From contig JBGGMM010000099.1 in NCBI GenBank assembly GCA_041288045.1, positions 1-21,250 on the forward strand: a stretch of 21,250 nt of DNA, read 5' to 3'. Made by a program: the position numbers and the translations under genes. Numbering within the stretch: position 1 is the first letter of the stretch; each line of letters begins with the position of its first letter. This DNA comes from Pseudobdellovibrionaceae bacterium. Its GTDB lineage: Bacteria > Bdellovibrionota > Bdellovibrionia > Bdellovibrionales > Bdellovibrionaceae. Of this stretch, positions 13-17,399 are shown in pieces. The notes beneath the pieces are model-generated. The model saw nothing but the letters and a program-made list of their open reading frames with translations, was not told the DNA's origin and did no database searches.

Positions 13-207
13 TTAGGACTTCAAAAGATAAAAAGGCAAAAACACATACAAGGTCAGATCGCGAATCAGATAATAAACGATGATTCCGACAACCGCCTTC
101 CACCCATATTTTCGCCGCACTTCTTTGAGTCGAGCGATGATTCGATGAAAAATCCGAAACACTCTAGGCGCCCGTTCTCGCAGAAACACCGAGGGCCCGA
201 AACACAT
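13..207 (-). CDS. Small hypothetical membrane protein (start uncertain: ATG 207, GTG 189 or GTG 162)
   Basis: Basic amphipathic stretch followed by a hydrophobic segment KYGWKAVVGIIVYYLIRDLTLYVFLPFYLL. Lies directly downstream of, or overlaps, the heme oxygenase stop (164-166), consistent with co-transcription. Confidence 0.6.
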   Translation of the reverse strand: MCFGPSVFLRERAPRVFRIFHRIIARLKEVRRKYGWKAVVGIIVYYLIRDLTLYVFLPFYLLKS

Positions 208-823
208 CGCCGTTGAATTGGAAGGCCGTGATCGCTTCTTCGCAGAATTTTCCATGATCTGTCAGAAGCACACCCACTTGATCCAAACCATCACGAAATG
301 ATTTTTTCAAATCGGCGACATTCGAATCTGGAAAGGCGTAAAAATTAAAAAAATTGGTCTCTGGAAAACGACGACTGAGAACCTTAGCGAAAACTTGGCC
401 GCCGGAAAGATCCCCTAAATACCTGACATAAGCATGAGCGACCAAAAGTTCAGGATTGGATTTCGCCAGCTGCAAAAGATAATTCTGATATTTAGAAACC
501 GCCCCTTGAATCTCATCACTGACTTCGCTGCGATGAGAGCTCCACCCTTTGAGATCTTCGTTCAGAGCTGAAAGCCGTAAAATTTCCTGAAAGAAAATAG
601 GAGAAATCGCTGGATGATTTAGATTTTCTGACAGCGCTGCCTCAAGACTTTCATAGATTTTTTGAAATGACCAAAGGTAGAGGTAATATTCACTATGAGT
701 GCAGCTTCCCTGAAAAAGCTTTTTGATAAAATCAGCACCTTCAACCATCGTGTGTACGGACTGTGTCGCTTCCCTGAGACGACTAGAAAGGAGATGTGAG
801 GGCGCCGAAGCTTCAGATTGCAT
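164..823 (-). CDS. Biliverdin-producing heme oxygenase (HO-1/HmuO/cyanobacterial Ho1 type)
   Basis: Proximal His region LREATQSVHTMVE and signature LVAHAYVRYLGDLSGGQ. Start moved to ATG 823 because GGAGG lies 4 nt upstream. Confidence 0.95.
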   Translation of the reverse strand: MQSEASAPSHLLSSRLREATQSVHTMVEGADFIKKLFQGSCTHSEYYLYLWSFQKIYESLEAALSENLNHPAISPIFFQEILRLSALNEDLKGWSSHRSEVSDEIQGAVSKYQNYLLQLAKSNPELLVAHAYVRYLGDLSGGQVFAKVLSRRFPETNFFNFYAFPDSNVADLKKSFRDGLDQVGVLLTDHGKFCEEAITAFQFNGDVFRALGVSARTGA

Positions 824-943
824 AAATCCTCCATAATTAAATAAAACCCTCTTCACCTAATGCAATAGCCGGAAAAAAATCAATAAAACAGAGACAAATC
901 TGGATTTCTGAAATCCTAATGAGAATGAAAATAAAATGAAAAC

Positions 944-1360
944 TTAAAACGGCGTCACTGAGTGACTTCTCGCCTCCTTCAACACATAAATCAGCTCTTC
1001 ATCTCCCAATTGAAGATGAAGAAGAATTTTTGATTCTTGGATTTCAATTTTCGTTTTGGTCTTACGCCCCAGCTGCATGTCTGGATCCTTGGCGCAGCTG
1101 GGATCATTTTGTGGGTTCAAGGCAAATGTCTCTGACTCTAAGAACCCGTTCTTTAATTGATAATTCGCAAAGCTTTCGCAAAAGGCTTCGGTCCCCCGGT
1201 CCCAATAGAGCCTTTCGGTGCCATTGGGATAAAAGCTCCAGCGAAGATTCAGCTCAGGACTTGGCAGCTGAATTTCTGAACCTTTGTAGATCAGACCAGC
1301 CAACTGCCATTCTCCAGACAAAGCAGCAGTCATTAAAAGAGGGACGAGAAGCGAATTCAT
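944..1360 (-). CDS. Exported lipocalin-like beta-barrel protein
   Basis: Short signal peptide followed by LSGEWQL (lipocalin GxW motif), beta-strand periodicity and two Cys. Starts 2 nt after the stop of the upstream gene. Confidence 0.6.
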   Translation of the reverse strand: MNSLLVPLLMTAALSGEWQLAGLIYKGSEIQLPSPELNLRWSFYPNGTERLYWDRGTEAFCESFANYQLKNGFLESETFALNPQNDPSCAKDPDMQLGRKTKTKIEIQESKILLHLQLGDEELIYVLKEARSHSVTPF

Positions 1361-1362
1361 TT

Positions 1363-1785
1363 TTATTCAACTTTCAGATCTTTTTCGAAATAAGTGCCGT
1401 CACCATTGAGGAATTTCAATTTGTGTTCACCTCGAGACAATTTTCCCAATTTGATTTCTTTTGAAAAAGGAATCAGAACCATCAAACACATGCCCTGACT
1501 GACAGAGGCCGAGGCTTTGATCTCATGCTGCTGGGGTCCCACATTTTTCACCACAGCCCCCTTCCAGCGGTAGCAACCATTCGGGAAAAGCCCATTGGCA
1601 ACGACATAAGCTTCTGCCTCCGAATTGAAGCCTCCCGGAACAAAGACATCACTGAGACCGATCACCACGTCCTTTACTTGTGGCGGCGCATCTTCATCAG
1701 CAAGTGCTGAGTGCAAGGGAGCTAAAAATAAAGCGGCAAGGGCTAAGAGCTGAAATGATTTCTTGGATGGTGATGGTTTCTTCAT
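1363..1785 (-). CDS. Exported hypothetical protein (Sec signal, probable disulfide-bonded beta-sandwich)
   Basis: AGGAGG RBS at 1790-1795. Signal peptide ending ALA-D. Two Cys (PNGCY, GMCLMV). First gene behind a sigma54 promoter. Confidence 0.85.
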   Translation of the reverse strand: MKKPSPSKKSFQLLALAALFLAPLHSALADEDAPPQVKDVVIGLSDVFVPGGFNSEAEAYVVANGLFPNGCYRWKGAVVKNVGPQQHEIKASASVSQGMCLMVLIPFSKEIKLGKLSRGEHKLKFLNGDGTYFEKDLKVE

Positions 1786-1823: not shown

Positions 1824-1839
1824 AGCAACCCAGATGCCA
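1824..1839 (-). promoter_or_regulatory. Sigma54 (RpoN) -24/-12 promoter
   Basis: Minus strand reads TGGCATCTGGGTTGCT, with GG-N10-GC spacing and a near-consensus match to TGGCAC-N5-TTGCW. Intergenic, correctly oriented, 38 nt upstream of ATG 1785. Confidence 0.85.
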
Positions 1840-1878
1840 CTCGAAAAACCTTCGATCAGCCAGTTTCGTTGAGTCTCT

Positions 1879-1928
1879 TGAGACAATTCAGCTCATCTCC
1901 TGGAAAAATTCAGAGACAATTCGTCTCG
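1879..1928. promoter_or_regulatory. Tandem 17-bp pseudo-palindromic binding sites (putative upstream activator sequences)
   Basis: TGAGACA-ATT-CAGCTCA (1879-1895) and AGAGACA-ATT-CGTCTCG (1912-1928), 33 bp apart, upstream of the sigma54 promoter. The same arrangement recurs at 12077-12126. Confidence 0.75.
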
Positions 1929-2012
1929 AAAGGACACTCCCCGAAGCCTTTATTGGCGTTTAAGGCTTCCTCCGGTTTTGCATTTATCTCAAGGCACAGG
2001 AATAGGGACTCG

Positions 2013-2834
2013 ATGATGGGAAAGCTTGAAAATAAGATCTGTTTAATCACCGGCGCCGCGCAGGGCATCGGGCTGGCCACTGCTCAAGTTTTTATTGAAG
2101 AAGGCGCCAGGGTTCTATTGACTGATATCGCCGATGACATTGGCAAAGCAGCAGTGCAGGCGCTTGGCAACAAAGCCTCCTACCTGCATCTGGATGTGAC
2201 TCGGCCGCATGACTGGGACAGGGCCTGTGAATGGATTCAAAAAAAATGGGGACGCCTCGATATCTTGGTGAATGCCGCAGGCGTCACTGGTCATCATTTT
2301 TATCAGCAAAACAAAAATCCGGAGCAGACCCAATTGGACACTTGGGAAAAAATCCAAACCATCAATCATGAAGGTGTTTTTTTTGGATGCAAGCTTGCGA
2401 TTGGCCTTATGAAAAACCAACAAACAATTGGTTCCATCGTGAATGTCGCTTCAAGATCTCTCGCCCCGGACGGAAGCTTTTCAATCGCTCTTCCATCAGT
2501 TCGAAACCACACCAAATCAGTGGCACATCACTGCGCCCAGAAGGGCTACCCGATTCGCTGTAATTCCGTTCACCCCGTCGGTGTCTATAGTTCCTTGTGG
2601 GAGCAGCTGATCGATAAAAGTGTAGATCCTCAGAAATATATTGAATCCGTCAAAGAGAATATTCCGATCAAGCGTTTAGGAACGGCGAGTGAAATCGCTC
2701 AAGCGATCCTCTTTCTCGCCAGCGATGATTGCCTTTTTATGACTGGAAGTGACCTGGTCATTGATGGAGGCCTTTTGGCCTCTTCATCCCCCCAGCTGCA
2801 ACTCCAGCCTTCCGCAAAGCTGAATCTGGCTTAA
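2013..2834 (+). CDS. SDR family protein (3-beta-hydroxysteroid dehydrogenase-like) with a degenerate active site
   Basis: TGAAQGIG nucleotide-binding motif, LDILVNAAG, IRCNSVHP and FMTGSDLVIDGG. No YxxxK. Start at ATG 2013 or 2016 (GGGA upstream); the ORF-track extension to 1803 runs over regulatory DNA. Confidence 0.9.
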   Translation: MMGKLENKICLITGAAQGIGLATAQVFIEEGARVLLTDIADDIGKAAVQALGNKASYLHLDVTRPHDWDRACEWIQKKWGRLDILVNAAGVTGHHFYQQNKNPEQTQLDTWEKIQTINHEGVFFGCKLAIGLMKNQQTIGSIVNVASRSLAPDGSFSIALPSVRNHTKSVAHHCAQKGYPIRCNSVHPVGVYSSLWEQLIDKSVDPQKYIESVKENIPIKRLGTASEIAQAILFLASDDCLFMTGSDLVIDGGLLASSSPQLQLQPSAKLNLA

Positions 2835-2835
2835 A

Positions 2836-3951
2836 CTAAGATTTTTGCTTTTTGGGAATCAACAACCGAAATCGAGTGTGGGAACTTTGAGAATCGTACT
2901 CCAGCGCTCCGCCATTTTGCTGCAGAATGCTTTGTGAAATACTGAGCCCAATTCCAGTTCCATATTGAACGGCTTTCGTTGAGAAAAAGGGATTGAACAT
3001 TTTCTTGCGAACCTCTTCAGGAATCCCATGACCACTGTCGGTGATAGCAATTTCAATATTTTCTGCTTGGTCCTTAGCTTCAATTTCAATCCATTTGTCT
3101 TTTAAATTCAAAATGGCATCAAAGGAATTATTTAAAAGATTCACAATCACCTGAACGATTTCATGGCTTCGACAGTCGACATAAAGATTTTTCTCAAGTC
3201 CTTTACAGCGAATCCCAATTCCATTTTTCTGAAAGCGAAGCGTGCAAAGATCCATGGAATCATTCACCAGCTCAAGCACAGAAGTTCTTTGCGTCGGTTC
3301 GGATTCTTGATGATGGGCCATGGTTTTCATGCTGCGAACAATTTTTGCAATTCTTTGACCGGTCACTTCGATCGTATCAGCGATTCGAAGCAGCTCGGTG
3401 GTTTCAGACTTTCCCTCTTGAAGAATAGATTTCAGCATTTCGACCCGCCCGAGGATGACGCCGAGAGGATTGTTAATTTCATGGGTGATGGCGGCTGCCA
3501 TCTCGCCAATGGCCGAAAGGCGTGAAGCTGCCACGAGCTTTTCTTGCTGACTGGTGATCGTCTGCTGGGCGCGCTTGAGCTCGGTGATATCATAGCGGAT
3601 AGAAAGATACTGTTCGGGTTTCCCCTCCACATCCAAAAAAGGCACAATAGTTGTGTTCACCCAGTAAGCCTCGCCATTCTTTCGACGATTGCAGACTTCG
3701 CCTCTCCAGACGTGGCCTTTGACGATGGTTTTCCAGAGATCAATAAAAAAACTTTTGGAGTGAAATCCAGAATTGATAATTCGATGGGTCTGCCCAATCA
3801 GCTCATCCCGACGGTAGCCTGAAATTTCACAGAACTTATCGTTCACATAGGTGATGACGCCCTTCGCATCCGTCGCCGCCACGATGGCCGCTTGATCCAA
3901 AGCGTATTTTTGATCTGATAACTGCTTTAAAAGCTCTTGGTTGACTTCCAA
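2836..3951 (-). CDS. Cytoplasmic PAS-domain sensor histidine kinase (NtrB-like kinase core, Aer/NifL-like PAS)
   Basis: PAS-PAC (YVNDKFCEISGY...LWKTIVKGHVWRGEVCNRRKNGEAYWV), H-box HEINNPL, N-box NLLNNS, DSGHG, FNPFFSTK and GTGIGLS. No transmembrane helix. TTG 3951 lies 6 nt after AAAGGA; TTG 3957 is the alternative start. Confidence 0.93.
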   Translation of the reverse strand: MEVNQELLKQLSDQKYALDQAAIVAATDAKGVITYVNDKFCEISGYRRDELIGQTHRIINSGFHSKSFFIDLWKTIVKGHVWRGEVCNRRKNGEAYWVNTTIVPFLDVEGKPEQYLSIRYDITELKRAQQTITSQQEKLVAASRLSAIGEMAAAITHEINNPLGVILGRVEMLKSILQEGKSETTELLRIADTIEVTGQRIAKIVRSMKTMAHHQESEPTQRTSVLELVNDSMDLCTLRFQKNGIGIRCKGLEKNLYVDCRSHEIVQVIVNLLNNSFDAILNLKDKWIEIEAKDQAENIEIAITDSGHGIPEEVRKKMFNPFFSTKAVQYGTGIGLSISQSILQQNGGALEYDSQSSHTRFRLLIPKKQKS

Positions 3952-3993
3952 ATCCAATCCTTTGTCTGGTCCTCGAGCTTTGAGTTTGGGTTT

Positions 3994-4010
3994 TGGGACA
4001 TTTTAGCTCA
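3994..4010. promoter_or_regulatory. Single copy of the 17-bp motif between the divergent kinase and regulator genes (putative autoregulatory site)
   Basis: TGGGACA-TTT-TAGCTCA. 14/17 identical to the 1879 site and 14/17 to the reverse complement of the 12077 site. Confidence 0.6.
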
Positions 4011-4082
4011 GAAAAGCAGAGTCCCAACTGGAAACTTTGAAGCTCCGAAGGTTTATGTTAACTCTATACCTAAGGAGTTATT

Positions 4083-5489
4083 ATGGCTCAAGATTCTTTT
4101 GGTTCCATTGTCATCGTTGATGATGACCCCGAGATGCGATCAATGGTCACTGACCATTTGAAACGGCAAGGATATCAAATCAAAGATTTTGGCAGCAGCC
4201 TAGAAGCTGTCAAATACCTTTCTTCTGGAGGAATCGACGCACTTGGGACCGAACTACTTCTGACTGACCTTCGCATGCCGGAGCTGGATGGCTTGGATTT
4301 GCTCCAGCAGATCCGAAGACTTCCCAATCAATTTCCAGTGATCATCATGACCGCTTTTGCCACAGTGGATACTGCCATTGAGGGACTTCGGCGAGGGGCT
4401 TTTGATTACATCACCAAGCCATTTAAACTTCAGGAGCTCACGCTCACAGTGGAAAGAGCTCTGACTTTCTATCGTTTAAAAATGCAGAACCAGGCACTCA
4501 CTGCCGAGGTCCGAAAAACTTGGTCCCTTCAAGACATGGTGGGAAAAAGTGCACCGATGAAAGAAATTTTTGATCTCATCGAGCGCGTGTCATCTGCCAA
4601 TACCAATATTTTGATCACAGGCGAAAGCGGAACGGGAAAAGAAGTGGTGGCAAGAGCCATTCACCAACGAAGCCCTCGAGCTGAAAAACAATTCGTCGCT
4701 ATCAACTGCACAGCCATCCCCAGCGAATTGATGGAATCCGAACTCTTTGGTCACGTCAAAGGCTCCTTCACTGGCGCGGTTTCGGATAAAAAGGGTTTGT
4801 TCGACGAAGCTCACGGCGGAACACTTTTTTTGGATGAAATTGGCGATATGGATGTGGCATTACAAGCGAAACTCCTTCGCGTTTTGCAAGAGCGCAAGAT
4901 CAAGCCTGTCGGTGCCACTCAAAGCAAAGATATTGATGTGCGAGTGATCGCCGCAACTCACAAGGATCTCAAAAAAGCGATAATGAATGGCGGCTTCCGT
5001 GAAGATCTTTACTATCGTCTTTCAGTGATCCCGATTGTTGTGCCTCCCCTTCGCCATCGGCCCGAGGACATCCCACTTCTTGCCAATCATTTTCTGCGCA
5101 AATATTCGGCTTTGAATGGCAGCCGCGTGATGGGATTTACCCAAGCCGCTCTGCAAAGATTGATGGCCTTTTCTTGGCCCGGCAATGTCCGAGAGCTTGA
5201 AAATTTGGTCGAACGAATGATTGTGCTTTCTCGCTCAGCGCAAATCGACGTGGCAGACATTCCAAATTCGGATCAAAGCTCTTCCGAGCAGTTTTTTGGC
5301 CAGGCCACAGTGGATTCGCCAACCCTTGAGGACCTTGAAAAAAGATACATTCAACTGATTTTGGAAAAAACCGGTGGTCGCAAAGAAAAGGCCGCTCAAA
5401 TTCTTGGAATCAATCGCCGCACTCTTTATCGAAAAGAACGCGATTATGGATTTTCCACCGATCAAGGCGAGCCGGAGCCAGAAGAATAA
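4083..5489 (+). CDS. Sigma54-dependent response regulator (NtrC/AtoC/ZraR family; REC-AAA+-Fis HTH)
   Basis: VDDD, TDLRMP and KPF receiver motifs; GESGTGKE Walker A; ESELFGH; GSFTGA; LFLDEIG; FREDLYYRL; WPGNVRELEN; HTH AAQILGINRRTLYRK. TAAGGAG RBS. Confidence 0.97.
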   Translation: MAQDSFGSIVIVDDDPEMRSMVTDHLKRQGYQIKDFGSSLEAVKYLSSGGIDALGTELLLTDLRMPELDGLDLLQQIRRLPNQFPVIIMTAFATVDTAIEGLRRGAFDYITKPFKLQELTLTVERALTFYRLKMQNQALTAEVRKTWSLQDMVGKSAPMKEIFDLIERVSSANTNILITGESGTGKEVVARAIHQRSPRAEKQFVAINCTAIPSELMESELFGHVKGSFTGAVSDKKGLFDEAHGGTLFLDEIGDMDVALQAKLLRVLQERKIKPVGATQSKDIDVRVIAATHKDLKKAIMNGGFREDLYYRLSVIPIVVPPLRHRPEDIPLLANHFLRKYSALNGSRVMGFTQAALQRLMAFSWPGNVRELENLVERMIVLSRSAQIDVADIPNSDQSSSEQFFGQATVDSPTLEDLEKRYIQLILEKTGGRKEKAAQILGINRRTLYRKERDYGFSTDQGEPEPEE

Positions 5490-6856
5490 GGACCCAGCAA
5501 AGAAAGTTTTTTCTCTAACAAATTTTTTTCAGTTTCAGCGTCCTGGATGCGAAGGTGGATTTCTAATCGACCTTTGGCACTGAGCTTGGAAGACTCAATT
5601 TCAAAAAAGATCGGGACTTCTCGTTTTCCTTCGGCTGGCAAAGAAAGCGCATCTTCAGGGATCACCACTTTCACCTGCGGATCTGTCTCAATTCTTATTT
5701 TCATTGCTTGAGCGGAATGATTCTCCAGCCGCAAGTGAAAATAATTTTGAATGAGCTTTTTCCCATTTTCTTCTCTGACTTGATAGGGATTGCCTTTTCC
5801 TCTTAAAAGCTCAAAGCGAATGCTTTGATGAAAAGCCAAAAGCACAATGAGCGCCACTGAAGCTGCGGCAATGATGCCTCCATAAGCTAAAACGCGAGCT
5901 CGCAACCATTGCACCGGTTTGTTGGTCAAAGCTTTGTAGCGAATCAGTCCTGTGGGCTTTTTCACTTTGGTCATGATCTCATCACAAGCATCGATACAAG
6001 CCGTGCAACCAATGCAATCCATTTGCACGCCGTTGCGGATATCAATCCCTGTTGGGCAAACCTGAACACAGCGACCACAGGCCACGCAGTCCCCTTTTGG
6101 CTGCGCGCTTGTTGCCAGACCCTTGCGCGGCTCCCCTCGCTTTTCATCATACATCACAGTCACTGAATGCGAATCCATCAGCACACTTTGGATTTTGCCG
6201 TAAGGACAGACGATCAAACAGAACTGCTCCCGAAACCAGCCAAAATTAAACAGCAAAGTTCCGGTCATTCCAAAGACCAACAGAAAGTAAGTCCAATTTT
6301 CTTGCGGAGCTCCTGACATCATCGAGATCAGCTCTTTGGAGCCCGACCAGGAAGCAATAAAACTATGAGCAATCAAAGCAGAGACGAAAAAATAGAGAAT
6401 CCATTTCAAATCTGTTGTGCGTATTTTTTCAAAATTCCAGTTTTGATCTCGAAGTCGTCGCCGTTGCAGATAGGTGCCTTCTGTCCATTTTTCAATCTGA
6501 CGATATATCGCTTCAATAAACACAGTCTGCGGACAGGCCCAGCCGCACCACACGCGGCCATAAAGAGCTGTCAGGAGAGCCAGACCCACTGTCATAATGA
6601 TCAGGAGAAAGAACATCAAGGGAGTGTCGGAGGCGTACAAATGCCCACCCAAGAAAGTGAGTTTCCGAGCCCCGAGATCAATTCGAAAGGCCTGCTCGCC
6701 ACCAATGAAAATCCACGGCAGCAGAAGAAAGATCAAAAGAAGAAGAAAGTGAACTTTTCGTTTCCACTTGGTGTAAAATCCCTTCACTTCGGCTGGAATG
6801 ATAAATTTGCGATGCCCATGCTCATCCAGCATTCCTAATCTTTCAGAAGGATTCAT
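5462..6856 (-). CDS. ccoG: Cytochrome c oxidase accessory protein CcoG/FixG (membrane 4Fe-4S protein, cupric reductase family)
   Basis: GRVWCGWACPQT, FCLIVCPYG, CVACGRCVQVCP and CIGCTACIDACD motifs; C-terminal Ig-like region; last gene of the cco operon. Confidence 0.96.
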   Translation of the reverse strand: MNPSERLGMLDEHGHRKFIIPAEVKGFYTKWKRKVHFLLLLIFLLLPWIFIGGEQAFRIDLGARKLTFLGGHLYASDTPLMFFLLIIMTVGLALLTALYGRVWCGWACPQTVFIEAIYRQIEKWTEGTYLQRRRLRDQNWNFEKIRTTDLKWILYFFVSALIAHSFIASWSGSKELISMMSGAPQENWTYFLLVFGMTGTLLFNFGWFREQFCLIVCPYGKIQSVLMDSHSVTVMYDEKRGEPRKGLATSAQPKGDCVACGRCVQVCPTGIDIRNGVQMDCIGCTACIDACDEIMTKVKKPTGLIRYKALTNKPVQWLRARVLAYGGIIAAASVALIVLLAFHQSIRFELLRGKGNPYQVREENGKKLIQNYFHLRLENHSAQAMKIRIETDPQVKVVIPEDALSLPAEGKREVPIFFEIESSKLSAKGRLEIHLRIQDAETEKNLLEKKLSLLGPYSSGSGSP

Positions 6857-7428
6857 TCGGTCACTTCCACTCCTTGTGGGGCTTTGGCTTGAGCGGGTTT
6901 GGTTTTTCGAAGCGAATAAACATAGCCCACCAGTCCTAACATTTCTTTTTCATTCACCAGACCTTCCCAAGCCGGCATTCCTTTTTCAGTCACGCCTTTT
7001 GAAATGACTTTGATCAGATCAGCGCGGTGACCTTTGCCATGCAGCCAAAATTTGTCGGTTAAATTAGGACCGATCATTCCTTGTCCCTCTGCTGCATGGC
7101 AAGCCGCACATTTGGCTGCAAAAACTCTTTTGCCTTCTTCCAACCGTTCATGGCCTTCGGACTGAGCTTGCAGCTCTTGTTCAGACCAAATTTTTTCTGC
7201 AGCTTTGGGAAGCTCCTTCATTGAAACTTCAAGCTCTTGAATTTGGTTCTGCCCGCCACCAAACTGGTAATGGATAAAATATATAAAAGAAAAGATGATC
7301 GTCCCAAAAAAAGTCATCAACCACCAATTCGGAAGTGGGTTGTCGTACTCTTGGATTCCGTCATAGCTATGATCAAGAAGCTCAGCTTCTTTTTTCTGAT
7401 TTTGGCTGTCTTGTTTTTCTTCGCTCAC
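6853..7428 (-). CDS. ccoP: cbb3-type cytochrome c oxidase subunit III, monoheme form
   Basis: FixP N-terminal motif HSYDGIQEYDNPLPNWW, one transmembrane helix, a single CAACH, GPNLTD and GMPAW. GTG start overlaps the ccoQ stop. Confidence 0.95.
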   Translation of the reverse strand: MSEEKQDSQNQKKEAELLDHSYDGIQEYDNPLPNWWLMTFFGTIIFSFIYFIHYQFGGGQNQIQELEVSMKELPKAAEKIWSEQELQAQSEGHERLEEGKRVFAAKCAACHAAEGQGMIGPNLTDKFWLHGKGHRADLIKVISKGVTEKGMPAWEGLVNEKEMLGLVGYVYSLRKTKPAQAKAPQGVEVTE

Positions 7429-7592
7429 GAGGGATCCCCTTCAAAAGGAAGTTGCTCCAAGGCCTTCACGTCCTCTTTTTTGTAGATCATCTGCTGAAGA
7501 ATCAGCAGGACGATGAATGAGACGAAAAAAATCAAAAGACCGATTTGTGTCCAATGAAGATCGGTGAAAAAGGCCAATCCCTCTTTTTTCAT
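7425..7592 (-). CDS. ccoQ: cbb3-type cytochrome c oxidase subunit IV (55 aa, not in the ORF track)
   Basis: Hand translation: MKKEGLAFFTDLHWTQIGLLIFFVSFIVLLILQQMIYKKEDVKALEQLPFEGDPS. One transmembrane helix and a C-terminal LPF. GAGGAGG RBS. 4-nt overlaps with ccoNO and ccoP. Confidence 0.88.
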   Translation of the reverse strand: MKKEGLAFFTDLHWTQIGLLIFFVSFIVLLILQQMIYKKEDVKALEQLPFEGDPS

Positions 7593-9706
7593 TTTGCCTC
7601 CTCTGATGTTTTCTGTCCAAGTGCTTGCAAGTAAGCGATGAGTGCCGTGATTTCTTTTCTTTCAAGGCCCTTAGGTGCTCCTTGGGATTCTAACCCTTGA
7701 GCGATTTCAAGCGCTTGTTTTTCGGCCATGACGTCGGCGTTGACGACTTCTTCATCGGTGTAAGGAACACCCAAATTTTTCATGACGGAAAGTTTTTTTC
7801 TTAAAATCAGATAGTCCACTTTGTTTTCCGCAAGCCAGGGATAATTGGGCATGATAGATCCTGGCGTGATCGATCTTGGGTCCATCATGTGTTGAAAATG
7901 CCAAAGATCTGGATATTTTTTGCCAACCCGTGCGAGATCTGGACCCGTTCTTTTCGAGCCCCACTGAAACGGGCGATCGTACATCGACTCTTCAATGGTG
8001 GATGGCTTTCCATATCTTAAGACCTCTGAAGAGATGGGCCGGATCTGCTGCGAGTGACAGACATAGCAGCCTTCCTTGACGTAAATATCTCGACCAGCCA
8101 ATTCCAAAGCGCTGTAGGGCTTGGTGCTGATTTTTTCTGGCAAGTATCGATGCAGTGAAAGCGTGGGATAAATTTCGATGATGGATCCAACCAGAATTGC
8201 AATCAAAGTGAGAGTGGTAAAAAGAGCCCATCTCCCTTCGAGTTTGCGGTGCATGGTTTCTTCTTTGCCCGAAGAATGCTGTGTTGAAGAAACCTTCATC
8301 GCTACAGCCGGCTCAGCTTTGGGAGCCAGCTTAATGGTTTTATAGATATTGTAAATCATCAGAATGAAACCGGCGATAAACAGAGCTCCACCCAGAGCTC
8401 GGCCCCAATACAGAGGAACAATTTTTGTGACTGTTTCGATAAAATCCGGATACATCAATCGCCCTTGTGAATCGATCGCTCTCCACATCAATCCCTGTGT
8501 GAGCCCTGCTACCATCAAAGAAATGTAATAGAGAAGGATTCCCAAAAAGCCGGTCCAAAAATGGGCAGTGGCCAATTTGACGCTGTAGAGTTTGGTGTTC
8601 CAAAGTTTGGGAACCAGATAATAAATCATCGCGAAAGAGAGAAACCCATTCCAACCCAAAGCTCCACCGTGCACATGCGCCACAATCCAATCCGTGTAAT
8701 GTGCCAGGCTGCTGACGGATTTGATCGAAAGTAGAGGTCCTTCAAAAGTTGCCATTCCATAAAAAGTGATGGCAGTGACCATGAATTTGATGATGGGATC
8801 GGTTCGCAAAAGATGCCAAGCTCCACGCAAAGTCAAAAGTCCGTTGATCATCCCACCCCAGCTGGGTGCCCAGAGCATCAAACTGAAAATCATCCCCAGA
8901 GTTTGCGCCCACTCAGGCAATGAAGTGTAAAGAAGGTGATGGGGACCTGCCCAAATGTAAATGAAAACCAAGGACCAAAAGTGAATGATCGAGAGTCGAT
9001 AAGAGTAAATGGGTCGATGGGCCGCTTTGGGAAGGTAATAATACATCAAACCCAAAAACGGAGTGGTCAGAAAAAAAGCCACAGCATTGTGACCATACCA
9101 CCACTGCACAAGTGCATCCTGAATGCCGCTATAAACGGGGTAGCTGTTCATCCAGCTGACTGGGATTTCAACCGAATTGACAATATGAAGGACAGCCACC
9201 GTGATAATGGTCGCAATGTAAAACCAAAGCGCCACGTAGAGATGTTTTTCTCGTCGGCGCGCAATGGTGCCAAAAAAATTAACCGCAAAGATCACCCAAA
9301 TGAAAGTGATTGCCAAATCTATGGGCCATTCGAGCTCGGCGTATTCTTTAGCTTGACTGTATCCCAATGGCAGAGAGATCGCCGCGGCCACAATGATCAA
9401 CTGCCATCCCCAGAAGTGAATACGGCTGAGAGTGTCCGAAAACATCCGCGCTTTCAGAAGCCTTTGCGAAGAGTGATAGATACCGGCAAAAATGGCGTTG
9501 CCAGCAAAGGCAAAAATAGCCGCATTGGTATGAAGGGGTCTCAACCGGCCAAAGGTGAGCCAGGGCAAATCCAAATTCGTCGGCCAGTAGGCCAATTGCA
9601 GAGCGGCTACCAGCCCCACAAGAAAGGCGACAAGTCCGAAAACCATGGTGGCCAGAAGAAATTTTTTAACAATGTCGTCGTCGTAGCGAAATTCGGTCTG
9701 ATTCAT
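7589..9706 (-). CDS. ccoN: Fused cbb3-type cytochrome c oxidase subunits I/II (CcoN-CcoO)
   Basis: CcoN motifs GRLRPLHTN, WWYGHNAV, WAGPHHL and AHVHGGALGW, followed in frame by CcoO motifs GRDIYVKEGCYVCHSQ, WGSKRTGPDL and SIMP. Confidence 0.98.
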   Translation of the reverse strand: MNQTEFRYDDDIVKKFLLATMVFGLVAFLVGLVAALQLAYWPTNLDLPWLTFGRLRPLHTNAAIFAFAGNAIFAGIYHSSQRLLKARMFSDTLSRIHFWGWQLIIVAAAISLPLGYSQAKEYAELEWPIDLAITFIWVIFAVNFFGTIARRREKHLYVALWFYIATIITVAVLHIVNSVEIPVSWMNSYPVYSGIQDALVQWWYGHNAVAFFLTTPFLGLMYYYLPKAAHRPIYSYRLSIIHFWSLVFIYIWAGPHHLLYTSLPEWAQTLGMIFSLMLWAPSWGGMINGLLTLRGAWHLLRTDPIIKFMVTAITFYGMATFEGPLLSIKSVSSLAHYTDWIVAHVHGGALGWNGFLSFAMIYYLVPKLWNTKLYSVKLATAHFWTGFLGILLYYISLMVAGLTQGLMWRAIDSQGRLMYPDFIETVTKIVPLYWGRALGGALFIAGFILMIYNIYKTIKLAPKAEPAVAMKVSSTQHSSGKEETMHRKLEGRWALFTTLTLIAILVGSIIEIYPTLSLHRYLPEKISTKPYSALELAGRDIYVKEGCYVCHSQQIRPISSEVLRYGKPSTIEESMYDRPFQWGSKRTGPDLARVGKKYPDLWHFQHMMDPRSITPGSIMPNYPWLAENKVDYLILRKKLSVMKNLGVPYTDEEVVNADVMAEKQALEIAQGLESQGAPKGLERKEITALIAYLQALGQKTSEEAK

Positions 9707-9861
9707 GATTGCTGATCTCCTTGACCTTCATCAATTAAAATTCGATGTGCTGGTGTTGTCGTGTCGTCAAATTGCCCCTGAGATGTGGCCCAGAGAAAGG
9801 CAGCGAGAAATCCGCCACCTAATAAAAGAGCCATGGGAATCATCATCCAGAGAATGTTCAT
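9703..9861 (-). CDS. ccoS: cbb3 oxidase maturation protein CcoS/FixS (52 aa)
   Basis: MNILWMMIPMALLLGGGFLAAFLWATSQGQFDD...PAHRIL matches the FixS pattern. ATG 9861 overlaps the ccoI stop (ATGA). Confidence 0.95.
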   Translation of the reverse strand: MNILWMMIPMALLLGGGFLAAFLWATSQGQFDDTTTPAHRILIDEGQGDQQS

Positions 9862-12008
9862 TTGCGAACTCCCCACCAAGTCGATGCCAAAATAAAAAGT
9901 GAACTGGCTGGCATTAAAAGAGCTGCCACAAAAGGATTCACCCATCCCAGAAGCGCACAAGTTCCACCAATCAGGTTGTAAACGAGGGCTGAGGTTAAGT
10001 TGGCTCGAATTTGCCTTCGAGCTTTGGCAGCGAATTTCATCAGCTCCGTTAAAGAGGAAAGCCCTTCATTGAGAAAAAGAACATCGGCAGACTGAAGGGC
10101 CACGTCGACACCGCCGCTGACAGCAATTCCCACTTGCGCGGCTTGCAGAGCGAGAGCATCGTTGACTCCGTCGCCGACCATTAAAGAGTGAGGAGTTGAT
10201 TTCACCAGCTCTGCCTTTTCTTGAGGAGTTAAATTTCCAATGGCATCACGAATTGGAAGGCCCAACTGCTGCGCCATTTTTTCGCTTTCAATTTGTGTGT
10301 CGCCCGAGAGCAGCTTGATTCGAAAACCCATATTCAGAAATTTCTGCACTGACTCTTTGGCACCTGTTTGCAAAACTGGCAAAAGTTGAAATTTCCAGAC
10401 TAAATTCCCCTCAAGATAAAGTCCGAACCATTTTTGTGAATTCTCTTGGAAGGATTGAAAAGACCAAAGGACCCCATTGATCCTTCCGCTCACTCCCCGC
10501 CCAGCTTCTTCCCTCAATTCAGAAAGCTTCCAATCTGAAGGGATTGAAGTTGCATGCCAAATCTCACGAAGGGCAAAGGCGATGGGGTGCTGAGATATGG
10601 ATTCGAGCAGCAGAATCACCTGGGGGTGAGAAGCCGGAACTTCGGCGAGGTTCGAGTTTTGCACATTCCAAAAGCGCTCCGTCAGAGTGCCAGTTTTATC
10701 CAGGAAAAGAGTTTGAATGCTCTTCAGTTTTTCAAAGGTGACTGCTGATTTCACAAGAATTCCGCTTTCCTGAGCTCGCTTCATGGAAAAGGAAAAGGCC
10801 AAGGGAGTTCCAAAGGCCATGGCGCAGGGACAAGCCAGGATAATCAGAGCCAAAGCTTTTTCGAACTGAGCTTCAAAATTTGAAAAAGCCCCGGATATCA
10901 GAACTCCGAGGGCTAAAATCAGCACTGACCCCAGCAGAATTTTTGAAGCTTTGTCTGAAAGCTTTGACGAATCCGATTCATCAAAGTTTTCTCGTTTCAG
11001 AGTGGAAAGCAAATGACTGAGAAACGTCTGGCTTCCAGCTCTTTTGACCTCCAGTGAGATTGCAGACGAAAGCAGTCTTGTGCCGGCCTTGATCGGAAAG
11101 CCTTGTTGAACTCGTCTTGGCAAAGGTTCTCCGTTGAGCACTGAAAGATCGATCACAGCTTCGGAGCTGAGCAAAATGCCATCAGCAGGCACCCACTCGT
11201 TGGTAGCTACTAAAATCTGATCATTCACTCTGAGGCTCTCCGTCCGAACCCAAGTTTCTCCAGCTCGAGTCAACAATCGCGCTTTGAAAGTTTGTGTCAA
11301 CGAAGAGGGCTTTAAAAATTTCAAATATTCAAATCGGGTTCTCTTTTGTAGGTAGCGAGTGGCCAAAATCAAAAAAAGAAATCCACTGAGGGAATCAAAG
11401 TAAACAGATCCCTGTCCACGAATCAGATTCCAGGAACTGGTTAAAAAACCAAAGCCCGAGGCGATCGCCATGGGTCCATCAATGGAAATGAACTGACTTC
11501 GCAGTCCGCGAATAAAGCCCTGATAAAATGGAAAAGCGACATAGGTCACCACCGGCAAATAGAGAACAAACTGCAACCACTCAAATTGACTTTTCATGGT
11601 TCCCACGAGGCCAAAATAAGTGGCAAATGCCAGCATCATGATATTGCCAGCACAAAATGCTGCAATTCCAAGCCGCGACAGGTCCTTGCGAGATTCGAAT
11701 TTCCACTGTTCGGTAACATCTTCTCCAGGGAAAATGGGGATCGGTCGATAGCCAAGATTTGAAATGGCCTGAGCAATCCCACCAAAAGACCCCTTTTCAG
11801 AAGTCAGTTCAACCCACGCTGTGGAGTTGTCCAAATCGACTTCTAAGGTCTCAATTTCAGGATTTTGCCTTCGCAGGCCTTCGACTTTAGAAATGCATTT
11901 TGCACAGCGGATGCCTTCAATGAAGAATTTCATTCGTCGAGGATTCTGAGGCTCACGATAAAGCAAGCGGAACTGGCTCTGGTCGAGGTAGCTAAATGTG
12001 CTTTCCAT
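9858..12008 (-). CDS. ccoI: P1B-type Cu(I)-translocating ATPase CcoI/FixI
   Basis: HMA domain GIRCAKC; CPC; DKTGT; HP; SGD; GDGVND; transmembrane YN and MxxSS Cu(I) signatures; first gene of the cco operon. Confidence 0.93.
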   Translation of the reverse strand: MESTFSYLDQSQFRLLYREPQNPRRMKFFIEGIRCAKCISKVEGLRRQNPEIETLEVDLDNSTAWVELTSEKGSFGGIAQAISNLGYRPIPIFPGEDVTEQWKFESRKDLSRLGIAAFCAGNIMMLAFATYFGLVGTMKSQFEWLQFVLYLPVVTYVAFPFYQGFIRGLRSQFISIDGPMAIASGFGFLTSSWNLIRGQGSVYFDSLSGFLFLILATRYLQKRTRFEYLKFLKPSSLTQTFKARLLTRAGETWVRTESLRVNDQILVATNEWVPADGILLSSEAVIDLSVLNGEPLPRRVQQGFPIKAGTRLLSSAISLEVKRAGSQTFLSHLLSTLKRENFDESDSSKLSDKASKILLGSVLILALGVLISGAFSNFEAQFEKALALIILACPCAMAFGTPLAFSFSMKRAQESGILVKSAVTFEKLKSIQTLFLDKTGTLTERFWNVQNSNLAEVPASHPQVILLLESISQHPIAFALREIWHATSIPSDWKLSELREEAGRGVSGRINGVLWSFQSFQENSQKWFGLYLEGNLVWKFQLLPVLQTGAKESVQKFLNMGFRIKLLSGDTQIESEKMAQQLGLPIRDAIGNLTPQEKAELVKSTPHSLMVGDGVNDALALQAAQVGIAVSGGVDVALQSADVLFLNEGLSSLTELMKFAAKARRQIRANLTSALVYNLIGGTCALLGWVNPFVAALLMPASSLFILASTWWGVRK

Positions 12009-12024
12009 GATAACTAGGTTTGGC

Positions 12025-12040
12025 TGCAGGGTTTATGCAG
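12025..12040 (-). promoter_or_regulatory. Degenerate sigma54-like -24/-12 element upstream of ccoI
   Basis: Minus strand reads CTGCATAAACCCTGCA (TG-N10-GC rather than GG-N10-GC). It sits 37 bp from the tandem motif, against 40 bp at the 1824-1839 promoter. Confidence 0.4.
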
Positions 12041-12076
12041 ACCTGAAATCAAAAGAATGGGATTTGGCTAAGAATT

Positions 12077-12126
12077 TGAGCCAGAATGTCTCAAGTTGCA
12101 GTGAACTCCAATGACAGATTGTCTCA
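12077..12126. promoter_or_regulatory. Tandem 17-bp pseudo-palindromic binding sites upstream of the cco operon
   Basis: TGAGCCA-GAA-TGTCTCA (12077-12093) and AATGACA-GAT-TGTCTCA (12110-12126), 33 bp apart. Confidence 0.75.
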
Positions 12127-12132
12127 GTCCTA

Positions 12133-13599
12133 TCAAAGCTCTGCCGCCGGCAAGTGATCTGACAGAGAAAGCGAATTCGGAACCAGTGCTTTGAGCTTCA
12201 CTAAAAAACTTGTTCCTACATTTTGGGTGGACTGAACAAGGATTTCGCCACTTTCATGGGCATTAATGATTTTTTTGGCAGCGGAAAGACCCAAACCAAT
12301 TCCGGGAATGGAATCTTTTGAGACACTGGAGCGTTTGAAAGGCTCAAAAATCGATTCGATTTCATTCTCTGGAATTCCAATTCCAGGGTCAGAAATCTCA
12401 ATGAAAACGTTTTGCTCTGTTTTTTGGACTTGGACTTTAACAGCTCCCCCCTGGGGCGAATACTTGATCGCATTGTTCAATAAATTATTGAAGACCTGAG
12501 TGAGGCGCTGACTGTCGCACATCACGAGAGCCGGCTCTTTCGGGACCACAATTTCGACTTTGTGAATCGGCGACAAATGAGAATGAAGAAGGGCCGAATC
12601 TTGAACCAAAGTGCGAATGTCACAAGCTTTCAAATGCAAATCCAAATGACCGGATTCAATCCGAGCTGTGTCCATGAGATCATCAATCAGGCGAAATAAA
12701 TGATCCGTCTGACGTTTGATGATGGAAACTGTTTGCATGCCATCTTTGGAAAGATTGAGGTCCTCTGAAATCAAATCCGTGGACATTTTGATTGCTCCCA
12801 GAGGATTTTTCAGATCATGGGCAATGGAAGATATAAAGGTTAGCTGAGTTTCTTTCTGTTTCGACAGCTTCGCCGACAATTTCACAAAACTAGATGAGAT
12901 GGATTGAATCTCGGAAACTCCGCCAAAGGAACTGGCCTCGACAGCTTGGCCCAGCTCAAACTTTTCAATTGCTTTTTTTAAACTGAGGATCGGCTTGTAA
13001 AGAAATCTTCGAAGCCCAAAAAACAGGACCATCAGAACAGACACCAGAATCGCAAAGGAAAGAGCGACCAAAGCATAATTGAATCTGTTTTGCAGAGCCG
13101 CCGCCGTCTGGAGCTTGCTCGCTTCTTCAAGATTGAATTGCACCAACTCTTGAATGGCCTCTTGAGCTTGATAATACGACTGAGAGACGGATTCGTAAAG
13201 GCGCTCCCCTTGCAAACCCCTGTTCTGCAGATATTCATAATTTTCTAAATAAGCAGTCACGCTCGATTGAACGTTTTTGTCATATTCGCCCTCTTTCAAA
13301 CTTGTCGCAAATTCTGAGAGGCGAGCCGAATTTTGCAAGAGGTTGTCTTTAGCTCGCATGGTCTGTATTTGCCGCTGATCAGGGCTGAAGATATTTTTCA
13401 GTAAAGCCTGTCGCCGATGATTGGAAAGATTTCTTTGAATGACTTGGGTGAAGGTGGCACTTTCGACAGCTTCGGTCAGGCGGTCAATGGTGGCCGCTGA
13501 TTCACGCGTTGAATACCAAAGCGTCGCAGCCGTCAAACAGCTACAAGCAAAGATAGCAAGAAGAGCTAAAGTCAAAGAGCGACGAAGAGATATTTGCAT
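12133..13599 (-). CDS. Membrane sensor histidine kinase (periplasmic helical sensor, HAMP-like linker, HisKA, HATPase)
   Basis: Two transmembrane helices flanking a helical domain; H-box AHDLKNPL; NLLNNAIKYS; DPGIG; GIGLGLS. Confidence 0.93.
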   Translation of the reverse strand: MQISLRRSLTLALLAIFACSCLTAATLWYSTRESAATIDRLTEAVESATFTQVIQRNLSNHRRQALLKNIFSPDQRQIQTMRAKDNLLQNSARLSEFATSLKEGEYDKNVQSSVTAYLENYEYLQNRGLQGERLYESVSQSYYQAQEAIQELVQFNLEEASKLQTAAALQNRFNYALVALSFAILVSVLMVLFFGLRRFLYKPILSLKKAIEKFELGQAVEASSFGGVSEIQSISSSFVKLSAKLSKQKETQLTFISSIAHDLKNPLGAIKMSTDLISEDLNLSKDGMQTVSIIKRQTDHLFRLIDDLMDTARIESGHLDLHLKACDIRTLVQDSALLHSHLSPIHKVEIVVPKEPALVMCDSQRLTQVFNNLLNNAIKYSPQGGAVKVQVQKTEQNVFIEISDPGIGIPENEIESIFEPFKRSSVSKDSIPGIGLGLSAAKKIINAHESGEILVQSTQNVGTSFLVKLKALVPNSLSLSDHLPAAEL

Positions 13600-15905: not shown

Positions 15906-17234
15906 TTAAAAAAACAGATCAGCCGATAAAGCGATCGTCGTGCCCGTTTGTCCACCCACATAGTAACCAAAAAGACTGTTCACTGGGCTGTGGTGCACAT
16001 CGAAAATCATGGCGTTCAATTTAAAATCGCGAGTGTCAAAGGGGTAATGGTTCGCACCTAGCATCCACTCCCAGGAGTTGTTAAATTCACCGCGGATGTA
16101 GGAATGTGCGGCGATCAATTCTGTTTTCTTTGGCTTGAGCATATAAGACGTTTGCAGGCTCATTCCCTGATCCCGAATCACAGAGATCGGAACATCGCCG
16201 CCGACAGTTTCAAAATGGCTCAGTTCGCGAAAGAAAAATTCAGAATTGAAGAAAAAACCTTTGTACTTCATTCCGCCATCGAGAGCTAAAATATCGTAGG
16301 TCGCTTTTTGAACTGTCACGCCTGGCGCTAAGGCGTCAGCTTCAAAAAGGTTCAAGCTGTCTGAAAGTTTCAGCTGGGTATTTTCTGGAACTCGATCCGT
16401 GAGGGCCGAGTATCGATCTTCGCGGCTGTGAGCGCTGGAAAAACCAAAACGAGTGGCCAGCTGCTGATGGTCTTCATAGTCCCCATATCCACCGCGAGGG
16501 CCGAACTCTCCGGTCGAGGGCATCCACCAGGCCGTCGCCCCATAGGCCATCTCTCGGTCGTTTTGTTTGGCATCGATGCCGATTTGACTGAGATTATCTC
16601 CAACCATCACTCGGTATTTGGAGTTGTCGGTGATATCACCACTGGCCCAAACTCCGGTGGTGAAACTGGGTTTGAAAAACTCATCGGCCATCTGACGGTC
16701 ATTTCCAAGAAAATAAGGATGTTGATTGTTCAGAGTCCGAACCCCGGGAAGCCCTGTGGTGCCGACACCGAGAATGAAGTATTTCGAAAAATCATAAGTG
16801 AAGGAGCCGACAATCGCCACTTGCGTGGTTGAGTTCACAGTCCAATACAAAATTTGATAGCGAAATTTCGGATCGAAAAACCAACCTTTGAAAAACATCA
16901 TGATCCGATGAATTTGAAAGTCGTGTCTGGCGTCCACAACCTGCTCGCGCCCCAAGTGATCTTGAAAGGTCTGCCCATCCGGCATTTGGTTCAGATAGCG
17001 AGCTAGAACGTAGGCGCTGAGACGGATTTCACCCATGGGATTTTTCCCCAGGAGCCATCCGCCACCTCCAGGTTCCAGCCGTCCCCAAGTCTCTGAACTG
17101 GATGGGTACTCTTCTTCAGCTGTTTTCTCGGTGTTGGGATTTTCCTGAGCCTGAAGCAGAAGAGGTGTAAATAAAAATAAGATAAGAAAAAGAATTCGAG
17201 CTCGACTGGTGGTGGTGTATCCTGGAGCTATCAT
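15906..17234 (-). CDS. Outer-membrane beta-barrel (porin-like) protein
   Basis: Signal peptide ending LQA-Q, aromatic-rich amphipathic strands and a C-terminal IALSADLFF ending in Phe. First gene of the operon with the amidohydrolase and glutaminase. Confidence 0.75.
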   Translation of the reverse strand: MIAPGYTTTSRARILFLILFLFTPLLLQAQENPNTEKTAEEEYPSSSETWGRLEPGGGGWLLGKNPMGEIRLSAYVLARYLNQMPDGQTFQDHLGREQVVDARHDFQIHRIMMFFKGWFFDPKFRYQILYWTVNSTTQVAIVGSFTYDFSKYFILGVGTTGLPGVRTLNNQHPYFLGNDRQMADEFFKPSFTTGVWASGDITDNSKYRVMVGDNLSQIGIDAKQNDREMAYGATAWWMPSTGEFGPRGGYGDYEDHQQLATRFGFSSAHSREDRYSALTDRVPENTQLKLSDSLNLFEADALAPGVTVQKATYDILALDGGMKYKGFFFNSEFFFRELSHFETVGGDVPISVIRDQGMSLQTSYMLKPKKTELIAAHSYIRGEFNNSWEWMLGANHYPFDTRDFKLNAMIFDVHHSPVNSLFGYYVGGQTGTTIALSADLFF

Positions 17235-17399
17235 ATGAAATCGGTAGCATCGGATTCTTCGCTCGGTCCACGCATGACCTCAGTGCGCCTGGCAAAAAGC
17301 AGGCAATTCAGAGGCTTTCCTCAATTTTGAGTGAAGAAAGCCGACTCGAGTTTCATCTATCTTTCAAATGGCAACCAAATTTGTCGCTGAAAAAATCGG

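Follow-up and report, generated by a model that had tools for sequence, protein, structure and literature searches.

A candidate redox- or oxygen-responsive sigma-54 regulon around the cbb3 oxidase operon of a Bdellovibrio-like bacterium

Oxidases of the cbb3 type are textbook targets of FNR/FixK and RegBA. Which regulator controls such an oxidase where a histidine kinase and a sigma-54 activator are encoded between the oxidase genes and a second operon? This question is raised by contig C99 of the metagenome-assembled genome G000 (2.89 Mb, 46% GC, 83%-complete). The whole contig of 21,250 bases is here called the window, and the nearest relatives among public records carry the titles Bdellovibrio sp. 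or Pseudobdellovibrionaceae. Its cco genes (5462-12008, minus strand) are tightly packed with overlapping stops and starts and form one predicted operon; the other operon encodes two small exported proteins, u140 and u138. A first-pass annotation had proposed that the kinase and the regulator are a dedicated low-oxygen switch acting on the two flanking operons. The switch gains good comparative support from orthologous promoters and from a motif that is linked to the regulator. Low oxygen as its signal is the more conditional part, and redox state is the nearer reading because the sensor resembles redox-sensing PAS domains that bind flavin adenine dinucleotide (FAD).

We consider it likely that the FAD-type PAS kinase and the NtrC-family activator form a two-component switch that drives the u140 operon, and probably the cco operon, through pairs of sites spaced by 33 bp. 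The PAS kinase (2836-3957) would phosphorylate the activator (4083-5489) when the cellular redox state or the oxygen supply falls. The phosphorylated activator would then likely bind the degenerate palindrome yGAGaCA-N3-TGtCTCr and, at the 33-bp site pairs, would activate transcription of the u140 operon by the sigma-54 holoenzyme. The ccoI-S-NO-P-G (cbb3) operon would probably be driven likewise, and the direction of control would be induction at low oxygen. Judged from the sequence comparisons below, the system is a real and conserved sigma-54 regulon, probably one for redox state or low oxygen.

The window contains five palindromic sites, all of them intergenic. The first-pass annotation had described these as copies of TGAGACA-N3-TGTCTCA. 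Their positions are correct, but no exact copy exists in the window. With at most two mismatches we found a single match (12077-12093, one mismatch), so that the number of five is valid only when three mismatches are allowed. At this threshold, the five matches compare to 1.14 expected from 100 shuffles (maximum 4), none of which reaches five. The repeats are real yet degenerate. Upstream of u140 lie a distal enhancer-like site (AGAGACAATTCGTCTCG, 1912..1928, three mismatches) and a proximal one (TGAGACAATTCAGCTCA, 1879..1895, three mismatches), which score 18.9 and 18.4 bits, respectively, with a window-free matrix built from 38 sites of relatives. The divergent kinase and regulator genes have a single site between them (TGGGACATTTTAGCTCA, 3994..4010, three mismatches, 19.4 bits with the same matrix). 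Upstream of ccoI, a strong proximal site (TGAGCCAGAATGTCTCA, 12077..12093) is the best match in the genome with either this matrix or the full one of 44 sites, and it is accompanied by a weak distal site with one good half-site (AATGACAGATTGTCTCA, 12110..12126, three mismatches). The spacing from start to start is exactly 33 bp in both pairs, as had been noted before.

Downstream of the u140 pair we found a canonical sigma-54 promoter, TGGCATCTGGGTTGCT (1839..1824, minus strand), from which transcription of u140-u138 is predicted to start near 1813. It differs from TGGCAC-N5-TTGCW by one mismatch, contains both the GG and the GC, is recovered by a GG-N10-GC test and lies 39 nt from the core of the proximal site. 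Elements of the -24/-12 type had been placed 37-40 bp from the sites at both operons; the one at ccoI, 36 nt past its site, is non-canonical, with TG. The u140 layout recurs in relatives. Among the u140 promoters of eight loci, five have site pairs at 32-33 bp (33 bp in L058, L068 and L032; 32 bp in L033), six have a sigma-54 element and five have a gap of 37-39 nt between the two.

The first gene of this operon, u140 (1363-1785, minus strand), encodes a small exported protein without a Pfam or NCBIfam match. It is followed by u138 (944-1360, minus strand), whose start overlaps the u140 stop and whose small exported product has no Pfam family. The predicted folds, YB1M beta-sandwich-like for u140 and lipocalin-like for u138, are structure-atlas leads only. 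In relatives, a gene of 447-473 aa with weak similarity to M4/M36 peptidases (thermolysin/fungalysin) lies between the two genes (u140-u138 intervals L033:17017-19242, L036:17343-19718 and L058:335-2584). This peptidase-like gene is missing in the window, as u140 and u138 (944-1785) abut directly.

The protein that would act at these sites has the architecture of the NtrC family. The regulator (plus strand) matches the Pfam families Response_reg (5.5e-28), Sigma54_activat (2.6e-73) and HTH_8 (2.4e-14). Its sigma-54 loop reads ESELFGHVKGSFTGA, a GSFTGA variant that is also found in NmpR-like proteins. We could not assign it to a named equivalog, since its scores are below the NCBIfam cut-offs for AtoC (476.6 versus 714), NtrC (460.7 versus 558.6), NtrX (392.9 versus 600), ZraR (401.7 versus 760) and GlrR (401.9 versus 763).

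The motif is conserved in orthologous promoters. When exact inverted dyads were counted without bias in 67 regions that lie upstream of ccoI, u140, kinase and regulator genes, TTGAG-N9-CTCAA came first with six regions. GAGAC-N5-GTCTC (four regions, tied second) and TGAGA-N7-TCTCA (three regions) were also detected, and all three dyads are parts of one palindrome. Iterative refinement, which yielded the 44 sites, resulted in yGAGaCA-(a/t)3-TGtCTCr, where G, G and C are near-invariant in each half. When the 2.89-Mb genome was scanned with the window-free matrix, four of the window sites (hits at 12075, 3992, 1910 and 1877) ranked within the top five. Furthermore, matrix hits spaced by 30-36 bp occur only once in the whole genome, at 1877/1910 (0.24 expected).

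Presence of the motif follows presence of the regulator. We defined regulator orthologues by an identity of at least 55%, with a clear gap to the paralogues, which reach at most 53% and form a separate clade. Orthologues occur in 22 of 40 relatives and form one clade in the tree; 18 of these relatives have both the orthologue and cbb3, four have the orthologue only, eight have cbb3 only and ten have neither. The motif (at most three mismatches, at most 600 bp upstream of ccoI) was found in 12 of 17 genomes with an orthologue, and in 14 of the 17 when a score of at least 13 bits is taken instead. It is absent upstream of ccoI in all eight cbb3 genomes that lack the orthologue, where the best score is 10.0 bits. 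Sigma-54 elements with GG and GC (at most two mismatches) are distributed similarly, with 10 of 17 genomes with the orthologue compared to one of eight without. Of 30 loci, 14 have the orthologue next to cco genes and eight have it next to u140. These patterns are consistent with the regulator of the window being the protein that binds the sites.

The regulator may also control itself. A site precedes its own gene in 15 of 29 loci, and a sigma-54 element follows downstream in only three of the 29. As this site usually comes without a sigma-54 element, autoregulation at another type of promoter is suggested, and the single site at 3994 would provide for it in the window. Outside the orthologue clade we found no equivalent arrangement among the loci screened: L140 and L141, the best Myxococcota matches of the regulator, are generic kinase-regulator pairs without cco genes, and 64 more distant loci are likewise generic pairs with no cco or u140 match in any of them.

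Several observations weigh against the proposed switch. In the genome as a whole, the number of high-scoring motif matches is not above that in Markov controls. Of the two sites before ccoI, the distal one is weak (9.7 bits for the full matrix, below 7 for the window-free matrix); its column block is conserved across five aligned genomes. The contrast of 12/17 to 0/8 overstates the support because kin genomes are not independent. Among the regulator-positive genomes, G031, G037 and the L054 genome have no good site before ccoI, and four have no cbb3 with the query used. The latter implies that cbb3 is not the sole target and perhaps not the ancestral one. A search for rpoN (PF04552) in the 83%-complete G000 did not find the gene, which is present in 24 of the 26 genomes searched, G000 being counted among the 26. 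No RNA runs are listed that contain window positions 2201-12200, which were found as DNA only, in two soil metagenome runs of one study. The remaining adverse points concern the ccoI promoter and are given with it below.

Could the palindromes be bound by another factor, or be chance matches or remnants of a repeat element that lie near the regulator by coincidence? Each site is degenerate, the genome-wide total does not exceed the controls, and in G021 the gene of a paralogous activator is also preceded by a similar site. However, the signal of the motif lies in the place where it clusters, not in the number of genome matches. Compared to a reversed-pattern control, genome-wide pattern counts were 11 versus 3 in G006, 5 versus 8 in G013, 3 versus 2 in G008 and 13 versus 9 in G021. 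The excess in these four relatives is modest, and the evidence is again the local clustering. In G006 (99% complete, 3.8 Mb), four of the 11 matches (at most two mismatches) are clustered in 11 kb around the regulator and seven lie elsewhere; in G013, three of five lie within about 6 kb. Moreover, the sites keep a fixed offset to sigma-54 promoters, they precede the regulator's own gene in about half of the loci, and they occur upstream of ccoI only in genomes that have the regulator. We therefore regard binding by another factor or coincidence as very improbable.

The regulon also appears to be compact. The six next-best genome matches (five of them outside the top five) lie mostly inside or at the ends of open reading frames. 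We rejected C181:26045, C158:2717, C98:10112, C31:4791, C245:5398 and C18:1546 as regulon members, as no sigma-54 element was found within ~250 bp. Since the next-best matches lack such elements, the regulon appears confined to the window contig in this incomplete assembly. In G021, the motif copy at C48:59005-59021 lies ~200 bp upstream of the gene of the paralogous sigma-54 activator (C48:59202-60569), and two further copies lie 22 bp apart at C89:8457-8495. These could reflect cross-regulation or a related motif.

Is the cco operon itself a sigma-54 target? Upstream of ccoI we found a sigma-54-like element, CTGCATAAACCCTGCA (12040..12025, minus strand), which starts 36 nt past the proximal site and is predicted to be a weak cco promoter with a transcription start near 12014, ~11 nt past the -12 element. 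It fails the GG-N10-GC scan because it has TG at the position of the near-invariant GG and so lacks the first G of the -24 doublet. In addition, the predicted cco leader has only ~6 nt and no ribosome-binding site, and the aligned stretch of G004, a genome of the same genus, AAGTATAATCTGTGCA, contains TATAAT, a possible sigma-70 -10 box. The regulator may thus bind the sites while cco in this genus no longer depends on sigma-54, and the TG element would be a decayed promoter. Transcription of the cco genes would then depend on another holoenzyme or on read-through from the kinase gene at 12133-13599, and the regulator would repress, act as a roadblock or do nothing. The first G is lacking not only in the window but also in G006, G007 and G004, no terminator-like site separates the kinase gene from ccoI, and both the very short leader and the TATAAT of G004 would fit with decay. 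We nonetheless consider decay unlikely. Within the genus, the window has cTGCAT, G006 has aTGCAC and G007 has tCGCAC, each followed by N5-CTGCA and each exactly 36 nt past the proximal site, in three species whose intergenic DNA has otherwise diverged. In an alignment of five genomes, neither the second G of this doublet nor the TGCA at -12 varies. At the aligned place, G017, a member of another genus, has AGGCAC with a true GG, and its leader is similarly short. Furthermore, a search of 11900-12300 yielded no sigma-70-like promoter and no terminator.

In other genera, true GG/GC elements lie downstream of the ccoI sites (L036, L040, L046, L047, L034, L043 and L156). Examples are TGGCGCAAATTTTGCA in L036, together with a 33-bp pair, TGGCACATCGGGTGCA in L040 and TGGCATATTGATTGCT in L046. 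The ccoI element of the window is thus best read as a conserved, probably weak sigma-54 promoter that lost its first G in this genus, and the element with TG for GG may still work with sigma-54. The first-pass annotation had found no TTGAT-N4-ATCAA (FNR/FixK) box upstream of ccoI, and we found none there either. The only match in the window with at most one mismatch, TTGACCTTCATCAA (9721-9734), lies inside ccoS, 15 nt before the start of ccoNO, and is probably meaningless, as 1.95 chance matches are expected in the window.

Which signal would the switch respond to? The kinase (minus strand) has a PAS-HisKA-HATPase architecture according to its Pfam, NCBIfam and solved-structure matches, and no membrane part is predicted in the Pfam output. 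Its best NCBIfam match is the first PAS domain of NifL. Among solved structures, its PAS domain (residues 26-141) matches best to PAS-A of 3EWK with 142 bits, followed by the PAS domains of Aer and NifL; identity to PAS-A of MmoS is ~60% over 116 residues. The structure 3EWK is from Methylococcus MmoS, whose PAS-A holds FAD in a pocket that includes T103, H132, N164 and R195 (PMC9668731). After checking the numbering offset of 98 in 3EWK against the residue names in that paper, we found that T29, H58, N90 and R121 of the kinase align to these four positions and are all identical. The kinase is therefore predicted to bind FAD and would report the redox state or oxygen.

The targets in relatives bear on the signal as well. 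In G006, the hemerythrin operon (L031) is preceded by a site pair 35 bp apart and by TGGCTTCGCCTTTGCT at a 36-nt gap, upstream of a 121-aa gene and the hemerythrin gene. G013, which has the regulator and no cbb3 with the query used, has a site and TGGCGTCAGGTTTGCT at a 36-nt gap before a 128-aa gene and an acetyl-CoA hydrolase/transferase gene (L033). A further site in this locus lies ahead of a CBS gene and of a tandem USP gene, with no sigma-54 element scored. In L063 and L068, sites and sigma-54 elements occur just 3' of the regulator gene before CBS genes; the equivalent sites in L058 also precede a CBS gene, with no sigma-54 element scored. Hsp20 and Fic/DUF4172 genes (6051-6602 and 7098-8219) adjoin the CBS target gene of L058. 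A gene set with Hsp20, USP and CBS recalls the mycobacterial DosR dormancy regulon. By comparison of gene content, the regulon in relatives mirrors the experimentally defined NmpR regulon for oxygen utilisation (PMC11841059).

The circuit could operate as described and yet respond to copper status, as proposed for MmoS, to energy charge or to the stage reached in the predatory life cycle. The nearest PAS structure, MmoS, reportedly belongs to a copper-dependent switch (PMC9668731), and ccoI encodes a copper ATPase. In addition, the best-supported target operon, u140, encodes exported proteins of unassigned role, to which relatives add the M4-like peptidase, and cbb3 was not detected in four genomes with the regulator. 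The residues of the flavin pocket, by contrast, match those of redox-sensing FAD-PAS domains, and the targets in relatives (hemerythrin, USP, CBS and cbb3) are the set described as hypoxia-induced through NmpR (PMC11841059). A different signal is thus also unlikely, and slightly more so in our view than a decayed cco promoter; a redox or low-oxygen signal remains the reading that we prefer.

The other genes of the window are as follows. On the minus strand, the cco operon consists of ccoI, the copper ATPase (9858-12008, Pfam/NCBIfam), ccoS (9703-9960), a fused ccoNO (7589-9706), a small open reading frame of 55 aa (7425-7592), ccoP (6853-7428) and ccoG (5462-6856). The small frame between ccoP and ccoNO was compared to FixQ/CcoQ and matched neither this nor any other family. 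In the genus of the window, ccoI begins at the conserved Y-L-D-Q region and lacks the Cys-rich N-terminal extension of L036, L040, L046 and L047. The 3' ends of ccoG and of the regulator gene converge and overlap by 28 bp (5462-5489). Directly upstream of ccoI, an unrelated membrane histidine kinase is encoded at 12133-13599 (minus strand), and its gene ends 7 nt before the distal ccoI site. No response regulator adjoins it, and a tblastn search of the relatives' loci found no homologue of it beside ccoI. A haem oxygenase gene (164-856, minus strand) lies 87 bp 3' of u138 on the same strand, and an SDR oxidoreductase is encoded at about 2012-2834 (plus strand). At 15906-18791 and 18959-21136 (minus strand) we found open reading frames of 442 aa and 463 aa without a Pfam or NCBIfam family, and a 725-aa protein with a C-terminal DUF4082.

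How does this locus compare to known systems? FixLJ-FixK/FNR and RegBA/PrrBA act at sigma-70 promoters with FNR/FixK boxes or RegA sites. They have the same output, an oxidase induced at low oxygen, but the window has no FNR box before ccoI and its regulator belongs to another class. At glnAp2 of E. coli, NtrC binds a pair of dimer sites that are separated by about three helical turns and precede a sigma-54 promoter, and it has sites at its own operon. The likeness is in the layout of paired sites; signal, motif and targets differ, and the regulator of the window falls short of the NtrC cut-off. The NtrYX system, a PAS-containing kinase with an NtrC-family regulator, is reportedly linked to cbb3 expression and low-oxygen adaptation. 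NtrY is membrane-bound, whereas the kinase of the window is predicted to be cytoplasmic. In many cases NtrX reportedly has no functional GAFTGA and works independently of sigma-54, and the regulator of the window scores well below the cut-off for this family. With MmoS, NifL and Aer, the kinase shares the FAD-type PAS domain and the conserved T/H/N/R pocket, and MmoS and NifL also feed sigma-54 activators. However, MmoS is a large hybrid kinase of many domains, two of which are PAS domains, NifL is a non-kinase that binds NifA, and the target genes differ from those of the window system.

To our knowledge, it was not until 2025 that a sigma-54 enhancer-binding protein was shown to control cbb3 directly, and this was in Myxococcus. 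The first-pass annotation knew of no described equivalent, which fails because the NmpR circuit is a published functional equivalent. The NtrC-like NmpR of M. xanthus binds paired GCGCA-N5-TGCGC sites upstream of sigma-54 promoters, as shown by electrophoretic mobility-shift assays and reporters (PMC11841059). Among other targets, it acts on an operon of a P-type ATPase and cbb3, on genes for a CBS protein and a USP, on hemN-hemerythrin and on its own genes; hypoxic induction was shown for one target, and the system is proposed to answer oxygen limitation (PMC11841059). The system of the window resembles NmpRSTU in its sigma-54 activator, in the two palindromes, in the ATPase-cbb3, CBS, USP and hemerythrin targets and in the predicted autoregulation. 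It differs in the sensor, which in NmpRSTU is the haem protoglobin kinase NmpU with a phosphorelay via NmpS according to the same text (PMC11841059), whereas here a single cytoplasmic FAD-type PAS kinase is found. It also differs in the motif, with GCGCA-N5-TGCGC and 14-15 nt between the sites in the NmpR text, compared to cores of GAGAC-N5-GTCTC and 16 nt between the 17-mers here. Furthermore, the regulator of the window lies beside its targets, unlike in NmpRSTU.

Are the two regulators orthologous? In two Myxococcota genomes we identified NmpR-like genes from the protoglobin kinases encoded next to them and from GCGCA pairs at a spacing of 30 bp; no loci other than L137 and L139, both of Myxococcota, were found to have such pairs. 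The NmpR-like proteins are 43-44% identical to the regulator of the window, which is their best match in G000 (380 versus 361 bits). We rejected orthology, as the NmpR-like proteins rank only about sixth in G041 and G044 (414 and 408 bits, compared to 461 and 459 bits for other activators) and as L137 and L139 branch outside the Bdellovibrionales clade in a tree made with mafft and FastTree, for which supports were not printed. By its motif, yGAGaCA-N3-TGtCTCr rather than GCGCA-N5-TGCGC, the system does not belong to the NmpR group either. A literature search of limited coverage found no such system described in Bdellovibrio.

We suggest tentatively, with somewhat less than even confidence, that Bdellovibrionota evolved their own sigma-54 hypoxia or redox regulon independently of NmpR. 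It would use another activator lineage, a one-step FAD-PAS kinase and another motif for the same gene set (ccoI-cbb3, hemerythrin, USP and CBS), to which a lineage-specific operon of exported proteins was added, and one genus would use a natural cco sigma-54 promoter without the first G of the -24 GG. As its sites can be read from the sequence, the system is tractable for studying how predators that are obligate aerobes tune their respiration in soil microsites or in prey, how regulons converge on one hypoxia gene set and how far a -24 element may drift and still serve sigma-54. Compared to the myxobacterial circuit, the locus points to a second version, not orthologous to the first, that predatory Bdellovibrio-like bacteria would have, with a simpler flavin sensor and a compact, mostly local regulon.

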